From Escherichia coli (GTDB taxonomy: Bacteria > Pseudomonadota > Gammaproteobacteria > Enterobacterales > Enterobacteriaceae): DNA of 64,000 nucleotides. The DNA lies in NCBI RefSeq assembly GCF_009931435.1, contig NZ_CP043414.1; one strand, given 5' to 3'. How positions within the stretch are numbered: position 1 is the first letter of the stretch; every line of letters starts with the position of its first letter. Below the pieces are notes generated by a model. That model was not told the DNA's origin and did no database searches. It worked only from the letters and a program-made list of their open reading frames with translations. Shown in pieces: positions 17,486 through 17,976 of this stretch. Both the position numbers and the translations under genes were made by a program.

Positions 17486-17748
17486 AATAATCAAGGGGTT
17501 ACCAAATGGTAGCCCCTTTGCTTTTTGGGCTCTTGGTATAAACTTGGTATACCAATTGGTATATTTTCTGCCAAAAAATTCCTAAAATCCCCTCCAGCAC
17601 AAACAATCACTTGCTCATTCATACTTTATCAAGAAAATATCCTTGCAAGTTATGTTGTTTCTTTCTGCGTCCCGACAGGGTGTCATGGTTCCCCACTTCT
17701 CTCGGGATGGACACTTAACGGACGAGAAATTTTCAGGTGTCATTCAGA

Positions 17749-17786
17749 CGCGCTTCGGCCCCGGATTGGCGAAGCGCGCTTTTTTT
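17749..17786 (+). terminator. Rho-independent terminator in the serT-prophage junction
   Basis: CGCGCTTCG-(12 nt loop)-CGAAGCGCG hairpin followed by T7. Confidence 0.5.
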
Positions 17787-17976
17787 CTCAGATTATTTCG
17801 TTTTGCCTGAGTGTTGAATAACGCCACTACAGTTATATAAGCTGGAAATCATTCAATACTCGCACTATCGAAAGTTCACCAGCCAACCGCAGCACATTCC
17901 TGCATACGACGTGTCTGCGGCTTTTTTCATCTCTGCCTGTAATTACTGATTAACGTAAAATCCTCTTCCCCGATAT

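Follow-up and report, generated by a model that had tools for sequence, protein, structure and literature searches.

The window, by which we mean the whole 64-kb stretch of DNA that was analysed, contains a single copy of serT. The tRNA gene is followed by a hairpin, three repeats of the motif TTGGTATA and two further hairpins (Table 1). From position 17977 onward, the open reading frames lie on the minus strand and comprise tfa, the tail fibre gene, J and the remainder of a lambdoid late operon. The first-pass annotation had named tfa as the gene after the two terminators, and a near-identical locus indeed carries the annotation 'tail fiber assembly protein' for it. At the other end of the window, the segment 60555-64000 contains an exonuclease gene and a DUF4224 gene, and int begins there as well but is cut by the window end. 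We also used the corresponding locus of strain N18-04097 (L004), which is 99.8% identical to the window locus and where the prophage spans from serT to int.

Table 1. Features at the serT end and at the int end of the prophage in the window.
Feature	Position	Strand	Basis or remark
serT, tRNA-Ser(UGA)	17398-17485	+	ARAGORN; Rfam tRNA, 57.5 bits; sequence identical to K-12
att core identity block, 65 bp	17426-17490	+	begins in the anticodon stem and ends 5 nt beyond the tRNA
IHF-consensus site AATCAAGGGGTTA (consensus WATCAANNNNTTR)	17489-17501	+	between core and arm repeats
Phage hairpin, predicted terminator	17493-17518, with T-rich tail to 17528	+	11 pairs, -18.9 kcal/mol, z -3.2; tail TGCTTTTT
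Three direct TTGGTATA repeats	17533-17540, 17544-17551, 17556-17563	+	spacing 11 and 12 bp
Inverted TTGGTATA copy	17548-17555	-	overlaps direct copies, creating the palindrome
TATACCAATTGGTATA, perfect 16-bp palindrome	17548-17563		read from the sequence
End of att module, mosaic breakpoint	17564-17573	.	different serT phages diverge here
Noncoding spacer of mosaic module	17575-17745	.	only short unsupported ORFs
Predicted terminator 1, hairpin and T7	hairpin 17746-17780, T7 17781-17787	+	-18.9 kcal/mol
Weak promoter-like TTGAAT, 16-nt spacer, TATAAG	17814-17841	+	read from the sequence; upstream of the conserved element
Conserved lambdoid noncoding element, about 95 nt	17841-17928	+	sequence matches; ends in terminator 2
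Predicted terminator 2, hairpin and CTTTTTT	hairpin 17887-17920, T-run 17921-17927	+	-13.5 kcal/mol
tfa, tail fibre assembly, last late gene of the prophage	17977-18507	-	ORF; near-identical locus annotated
Excisionase-like DUF4224 gene, 83 aa	63093-63344	+	Pfam PF13986, E = 1.8e-9; overlaps int start
int, first 229 codons	63313-64000	+	cut by window end; full-length homologue in L004

The region was compared with genomes that have no prophage at serT. In a K-12-type genome, the gene order is hyaA, serT, yccA, with the latter two genes 206 bp apart, which confirms the statement of the first-pass annotation that this locus is unoccupied in K-12. The alignment to this genome was perfect through serT and the following AATAA (17490) and diverged beyond, where the window reads TCAAGGGGTTACCAAATGGTAGCCCC and K-12 reads GATAAGGGGTTAGCTAAATGCTAACCCC. 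The serT part was matched in 5425 of the 5426 complete E. coli genomes, and most of 17380-18000 was covered in only 47 of them. In the prophage-free genomes, the match ended at about 17525 with 94% identity, but it was perfect to 17490 only and thereafter consisted of a diverged homologue of the hairpin. The segment 17486-17976 is absent from these loci, and the existence of a junction at serT withstood this comparison.

The second junction was found in L004. In this locus, an arm of 141 bp (45519-45659) comes after the int stop codon, then a partial serT and then K-12 sequence with yccA. The partial serT copy reads CGGTCTTGAAAACCGG...CGCCAAATAA and continues into the K-12 hairpin and yccA. 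The longest exact match between the two prophage ends was 65 bp, corresponding to 17426-17490 in the window and 45660-45724 in L004. This repeat and the identity to K-12 that ends at 17490 place the core inside serT. We conclude that the window sequence 17426-17567 is attL, the left junction of a lambdoid prophage in serT, and that the DNA from 17491 onward is of phage origin. A prophage-chromosome junction at serT had been proposed in the first-pass annotation, and it is borne out by the comparison with K-12 and by the attL/attR repeat. The matching att copy, which had been expected past int and outside the window, was found just beyond int in the 99.8% identical locus. The junction had, however, been placed directly after the serT terminator, and this position has to be corrected, since the core lies within the tRNA gene and the hairpin behind it belongs to the phage. 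For the window prophage, attR lies beyond position 64000, and as seen in L004 the displaced 3' fragment of serT adjoins yccA at the far end of the prophage. serT itself is intact in the lysogen, with a 5' part derived from the host and a 3' part inside the att identity block.

The joined, uninterrupted attP was present in the free phage Evi (LR597642.1) and in the viral contigs L029 and L079. After the int stop codon come a CCAGAAAATTTTCTGG palindrome and the motif cTTGGTATAt, followed by an IHF-type site and a variable copy resembling TTGGTGT. About 60 bp of T-rich DNA separate this copy from the 65-bp core, beyond which lie the phage hairpin and the three TTGGTATA repeats. This layout identifies hairpin and repeats together as the int-distal arm of attP. 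In the int-proximal arm, TGGTATA was invariant across 15 variants with variable flanks, and the second copy of the motif, TTGGTGT, was poorly conserved. At the int-distal side, the homology to the O157-type and Evi phages ended at about 17567, with some variants sharing TTTTC(A/T)G to about 17573. Homology was lost right after the third repeat between the window, the O157-type phages with EspV/TccP2-like genes, L029, L172 and Evi. Since different serT phages lose homology at this point, we place the boundary of the att module there.

Two further observations concern sequences related to this module. Directly after the int stop codon of L004 (45525-45540), a palindrome (C)CAGAAAATTTTCTG(G) of 14-16 bp is followed by CAAAAAGAC and the arm site, and a similar TTTTCTGCCAAAAAA is located in the window directly after the third repeat (17566-17582). 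In strain E2348/69, a whole attP was found in a decayed state with arm, degenerate serT core, hairpin and two repeats (L093 1380-1600; NZ_LT827011.1 ~1438400-1438630). This relic lies far from serT in a prophage remnant that is rich in effectors, and its neighbours on the two sides are EspO, IS fragments and nleF.

The consensus WATCAANNNNTTR was matched twice in the 64-kb window, and one of these matches lies between the core and the repeats. In L004, two of the three matches in 49.9 kb sit in the two att arms, the copy of the int-proximal arm being at 45576-45588. The site in the int-distal arm overlaps the 5' side of the phage hairpin, whereas the host counterpart, AGATAAGGGGTTA, does not fit the IHF consensus. 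We infer from these sites that IHF may bend the DNA on both att arms.

The hairpins of host and phage fold alike, with 11 pairs each. Compared to the host stem, the phage stem has one G-C pair swapped to C-G and one A replaced by G, leaving a G-U wobble, which suggests that the structure was kept while the sequence drifted. The phage hairpin is also present in the attP of the free phage Evi, and in the lysogen it replaces the native hairpin of serT as the predicted terminator. In the circular phage, it is found about 210 nt past the int stop codon, across the core. We also considered a sib-type RNase III retroregulator, and this was ruled out because a stem of 11 pairs is too short.

The exact crossover is hidden by the 65 bp of identity between phage and host. 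Within this block, the inverted halves of the anticodon stem, CCGGT and ACCGG, flank the 7-nt anticodon loop CTTGAAA (17430-17436), and we infer that the crossover most likely takes place in this loop. The viral contig L078 has a breakpoint at about 2660-2680, where the sequence that includes the int-proximal arm continues to CGGTCT in the anticodon-loop region and then passes directly into unrelated DNA (CGGTCT/ACCAAACGG). This breakpoint could reflect integration at a secondary site or a rearrangement; coming from one contig, it is a hint to the position of the crossover.

The integrase contains a tyrosine recombinase catalytic domain (Pfam PF00589, E = 2.2e-8). The protein of 339 amino acid residues could be aligned with the whole of lambda Int (from residue 1, with the end given as 318 or 339; E = 1.9e-17) and matched the lambda Int structures 1z1b and 5j0n with E values of about 1e-17. 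In the N-terminal 68 residues, 34% are identical to the arm-binding domain of lambda Int (pairwise E = 4e-9). The Pfam model of the lambda arm-binding domain, Arm-DNA-bind_1, had no match in Int at E <= 0.1, and the comparison with 1kjk alone gave E = 0.14. Position and size of the DUF4224 protein would fit an excisionase. In the more distant Int relatives L083 and L084 (76-78% identity), no tRNA core and no TTGGTATA was found in the downstream DNA.

The three repeats between 17533 and 17563 and the 16-bp palindrome had been noticed in the first-pass annotation and were seen as described, together with one inverted copy of the motif. In the 64-kb window, TTGGTATA occurs 8 times compared with 1.22 expected copies, and 4 of the 8 lie within 31 bp. 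When the sequence was shuffled 100 times, the maximum was 5 copies. Two further exact copies are located in the early-left region upstream of the exonuclease gene at 58871-58878 (-) and 60338-60345 (+); they match L004 40057 and 41524, near dicB, and were taken as chance occurrences. The three repeats are conserved in the attP or attL of Evi, L003, L029, L079, L172 and L174, but all three-repeat arms are at least 92% identical to one another and their conservation therefore has little statistical power.

We think it probable that the repeats are arm-type Int binding sites of a lambda-style attP. The repeats could instead be functionless, a local duplication or a chance cluster in the A+T-rich DNA of the phage end. 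The close relationship of all carriers, which makes conservation alone weak evidence, would fit such an origin. In addition, the motif can arise elsewhere, as an unrelated phage has a triple TTGGTATACC in a replisome-organiser gene. The enrichment over the shuffled sequences argues against a chance cluster, as do the copy on the other arm that is invariant amid variable flanks, the mosaic breakpoint exactly after the third repeat, and the layout, which matches a lambda-type attP and is accompanied by an Int with an arm-binding domain. We regard an absence of function as very improbable.

The distribution of the spaced triple motif was followed in the viral and genome collections, where it was found in the serT att family, in E. 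albertii and in two unrelated matches only. Among 100,044 species representatives, it was present only in E. albertii and in one unrelated match. The metagenomic phage that carries TTGGTATACC three times with the same 11/12-bp spacing (L171 3435-3465 and L173 3426-3456) is unrelated, and there the triple lies in the replisome-organiser-like gene and looks like origin iterons. The motif as such is therefore not specific for att sites.

The symmetry of TATACCAATTGGTATA raised the possibility that a dimeric regulator of phage or host uses the palindrome as an operator and controls something at the prophage end. The symmetry is perfect and depends on the 4-nt spacer CCAA, for which the chance is about 1 in 256, and the palindrome is conserved in all close relatives. 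However, TATA is self-complementary and half of the symmetry is thus obtained for free. Moreover, the variant arm L094 of an O22:H8 strain reads TTAGTATA / TTGGTATA / TTGGTATA with the same spacing and the spacer CTAA, and the decayed E2348/69 relic (L093) has CCCA. In both cases the palindrome is broken and the direct repeats are kept. The promoter scanner called no promoter within the repeat cluster. An operator is hardly to be expected here. From L094 and L093, the direct repeats are the conserved feature and the 16-bp palindrome is probably an incidental by-product.

If the repeats are bound by a phage protein, the DUF4224 excisionase-like protein is the main candidate besides Int. It would then form a short filament on one arm as a directionality factor, and Int would not be the protein that recognises the motif. 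Tandem direct repeats with a spacing of 11-12 bp look like an excisionase filament site, as known for lambda Xis on X1-X1.5-X2. The lambda Xis sites are on the int-distal arm, as is the triple repeat here, and the DUF4224 gene is directly upstream of int. Yet the lambda sites P'1-P'3 are likewise three tandem sites, bound by Int, and the motif is invariant on the other arm too, whereas Xis-type sites are confined to one arm. L029 and L052 have many substitutions in the DUF4224 protein and keep TTGGTATA unchanged. A lineage represented by L049 and L058 has CTGGTATA in both arms, four substitutions in the N-domain of Int and a divergent DUF4224 protein. The divergent DUF4224 protein would agree with binding by this protein, but as both proteins differ in that lineage, the change of the motif cannot separate Int from the excisionase-like protein. 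We judge binding by the DUF4224 protein to be unlikely and prefer Int as the protein that would occupy the repeats. The first-pass annotation had suggested integrase or accessory-factor sites at the att junction. Their location at att was confirmed by the attP layout, and binding is predicted as the best reading, while the palindrome, which the first-pass annotation had also described, is probably a by-product as it is broken in L094.

The variant att module of L049 (2520-2790) has CTGGTATA in both arms, only one int-distal site and a hybrid hairpin, GGTTACCAAATGGTAACC. The changes in the N-domain of its Int are N7D, A12V, E29K and G36K.

The DNA between the third repeat and tfa has a different history. 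The segment 17575-17840 is 89% identical to DNA of L090 that lies between an ompW-type attP and a tfa-like gene. The differences include 1-nt indels and there is no conserved reading frame, which indicates that the segment is noncoding. The block 17730-17840 recurs beside tail-fibre genes in about 900 E. coli genomes at 80-90% identity, and 17730-17926 recurs beside tail-fibre genes in prophages near zinT. From these matches, 17568-17976 is a mosaic module of its own, not tied to the type of integrase and shared with phages that have other integrases. A coding role for 17500-17980 was rejected, since only short ORFs are present and the closest homologue differs by 1-nt indels. Homologous DNA elsewhere has been annotated as 'capsid protein', but this refers to an ORF of 55 aa or to fragments, and it is not intact in the window.

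Two plus-strand terminators ahead of tfa had been read in the first-pass annotation. Folding gave the hairpins 17746-17780 and 17887-17920, both followed by T-runs, so that termination is predicted at both places. They do lie between att and tfa, but they are not members of the att junction as had been implied, since the att module ends at about 17567. All three hairpins (17493, 17746 and 17887) have a T-run after the plus strand only and none after the minus strand. A simple terminator scanner flagged only the hairpin 17493-17518 and missed terminators 1 and 2 because their loops are longer than 8 nt. Relative to the common variant, terminator 1 has changes in both strands of the stem at two positions, and the lowest-energy fold of that variant is a different structure; compensatory changes in this stem are suggestive only. 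A search of 17000-18600 against Rfam at E <= 1 found the tRNA and a chance-level match to MicX (16.6 bits vs a gathering score of 75) only. At the promoter-like sequence 17814-17841, the promoter scanner made no call.

The second terminator is the end of a noncoding element with the consensus GTAAAATCGGTAACGGCTGGAAATCATTCAATACTCGCACTATCGRAAGTTCACCAGCCARCCGCAGCACGTTCTTGCATACGACGTGNCTGCGG and a T-rich tail. This element was detected in 206 phage records, including lambda (NC_001416 24160-24240, between ea31 and ea47) and HK97 (20933-21025, just past sib), and in 72 viral contigs, with several unrelated types of flanks on both sides. Among the complete E. coli genomes, 5412 of 5426 have it, at 18,829 places and with a median of 3 copies. 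It usually lies just beyond the int-distal side of attP whichever integrase is present, and it is on the int strand in the phages where int is in view. At its 5' edge the element has TAAAAT, which resembles a -10 box, and its 3' end is formed by a hairpin with a T-run. In the window copy, an 11-bp deletion at the 5' edge has removed the usual TAAAAT. Within 17486-17976, the element matched no Rfam 15 family, and it contains no conserved reading frame. The covariation term of RNAalifold was about 0, as the sequences are too similar to one another.

In K-12, an unannotated copy of the element is located in Qin between ydfJ' and ynfT-ydfK (NC_000913.3 ~1632470-1632575), and the part of it that forms the hairpin is also present in Rac, upstream of ynaM-ynaE. 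For ydfK and ynaE, 5' leader RNAs that terminate prematurely and are bound by Hfq have been described (PMC5089854; PMC4152368). The element may be the same RNA as these leaders, given that the Qin and Rac copies are positioned upstream of those genes; unlike the K-12 leaders, the window copy is not followed by a gene. It is possible, though doubtful, that the element represents an unrecognised transcription unit, for a leader that terminates or for a small RNA bound by Hfq, and that it was spread by lambdoid phages to almost every E. coli genome. Three known RNAs were ruled out as its identity: C0293; lambda PreS/LPR1, by its location between ea10 and ral; and svsR, by its different location at the 3' end of cI. 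In our view, this nearly ubiquitous element is the only point that deserves to be followed further.

Taken together, our results make it likely that this attL arose when a lambdoid prophage was put into serT by a heterobivalent (two-site) tyrosine integrase of the lambda family, with the repeats serving as arm sites of Int. Recombination would occur within the 65-bp block common to phage and host, most likely at the 7-nt anticodon loop. The phage would bring the 3' half of serT together with its own terminator hairpin, so that serT of the lysogen is intact and terminated. The N-terminal domain of Int would bind the three TTGGTATA sites, which are spaced one helical turn apart. With the fourth, invariant copy on the int-proximal arm and with IHF bending both arms, Int could then bridge arm and core. 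In its circular form, the phage would use the hairpin and both plus-strand terminators behind it to stop int and leftward transcription before it enters tfa in antisense direction, and in the prophage the same three would stop read-through from the strong serT promoter.

The att arm is carried by 775 of the 5426 complete E. coli genomes (~14%). Prophages are known to occupy serT/yccA: Sp4 of O157 Sakai is integrated there, and yccA (Sp4) and serT are listed among the integration sites of STEC (PMC10925052; PMC8767318). In our literature search, no paper was found that describes the arms of the serT attP. The results provide a base-accurate map of the integration module, in which the core, the two arms and the boundary are placed together with candidate sites for Int and IHF. 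The map applies to about 14% of the complete E. coli genomes, including the O157:H7 effector phages of the Sp4 type. It should be useful to delimit prophages, to design serT-targeted integration vectors and to predict excision products. It also illustrates how serT can remain intact and terminated in a lysogen when the phage brings along a copy of the 3' half of the gene and a predicted terminator.

Prophages of the Sp4/CP-933M type in O157:H7 and other STEC occupy the same serT-yccA locus and have the same att arm as the window prophage, and O157-type genomes share 17380-17567 at about 99%. The similarity does not extend past the third repeat, where the O157-type phages have EspV/TccP2-like effector genes and the window has the noncoding module and tfa.

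Crossover in the anticodon loop is known for related phages, and P22 at thrW and HP1 at tRNA-Leu integrate in the anticodon-loop region. Sublocation classes of integration within tRNA genes were reportedly set out by Williams in 2002. As in the anticodon-loop integrators, the identity block described here extends from the anticodon stem and loop to just past the tRNA 3' end, the tRNA gene is rebuilt intact and its 3' fragment is left at the other end of the prophage. In contrast to P22 and HP1, the crossover in serT is a predicted one, with a single hint from L078. The symmetric anticodon stem around the 7-nt loop also resembles a C-O-C' core.

The closest parallel is the attP of lambda, with the order P1-H1-P2-X-F-H2-C-O-C'-H'-P'1-P'2-P'3. 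The arm motif of lambda is C/AAGTCACTAT, and it differs from TTGGTATA, the proposed arm motif of the serT phage. In both systems a repeated motif distinct from the core is present on the two arms, and one arm has three tandem copies with helical-turn spacing. The integrase of the serT phage is homologous to lambda Int over its full length, including the arm-binding domain, an IHF consensus lies between core and arm sites, and an excisionase-like gene adjoins int. As with tI/sib of lambda, a predicted terminator is located downstream of int beyond the attP core and is separated from int by integration; unlike sib, it has a stem of only 11 bp and would double as the terminator of the tRNA gene in the lysogen. 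The target is a tRNA gene and not an intergenic site, and the core identity is 65 bp compared with 15 in lambda. The triple-repeat arm is int-distal here and int-proximal in lambda, and it is 100-130 bp away from the predicted crossover, as it is separated from it by the 3' half of the tRNA gene. The whole att site comprises about 270 bp, and that of lambda 240 bp (PMC4880445). In lambda, Int connects arm sites of high affinity with weak core sites, aided by DNA bends that IHF introduces (PMC4880445). In conclusion, the serT junction is an ordinary attL of the lambda type and a previously undescribed example of this well-known mechanism, and it reveals no new one.
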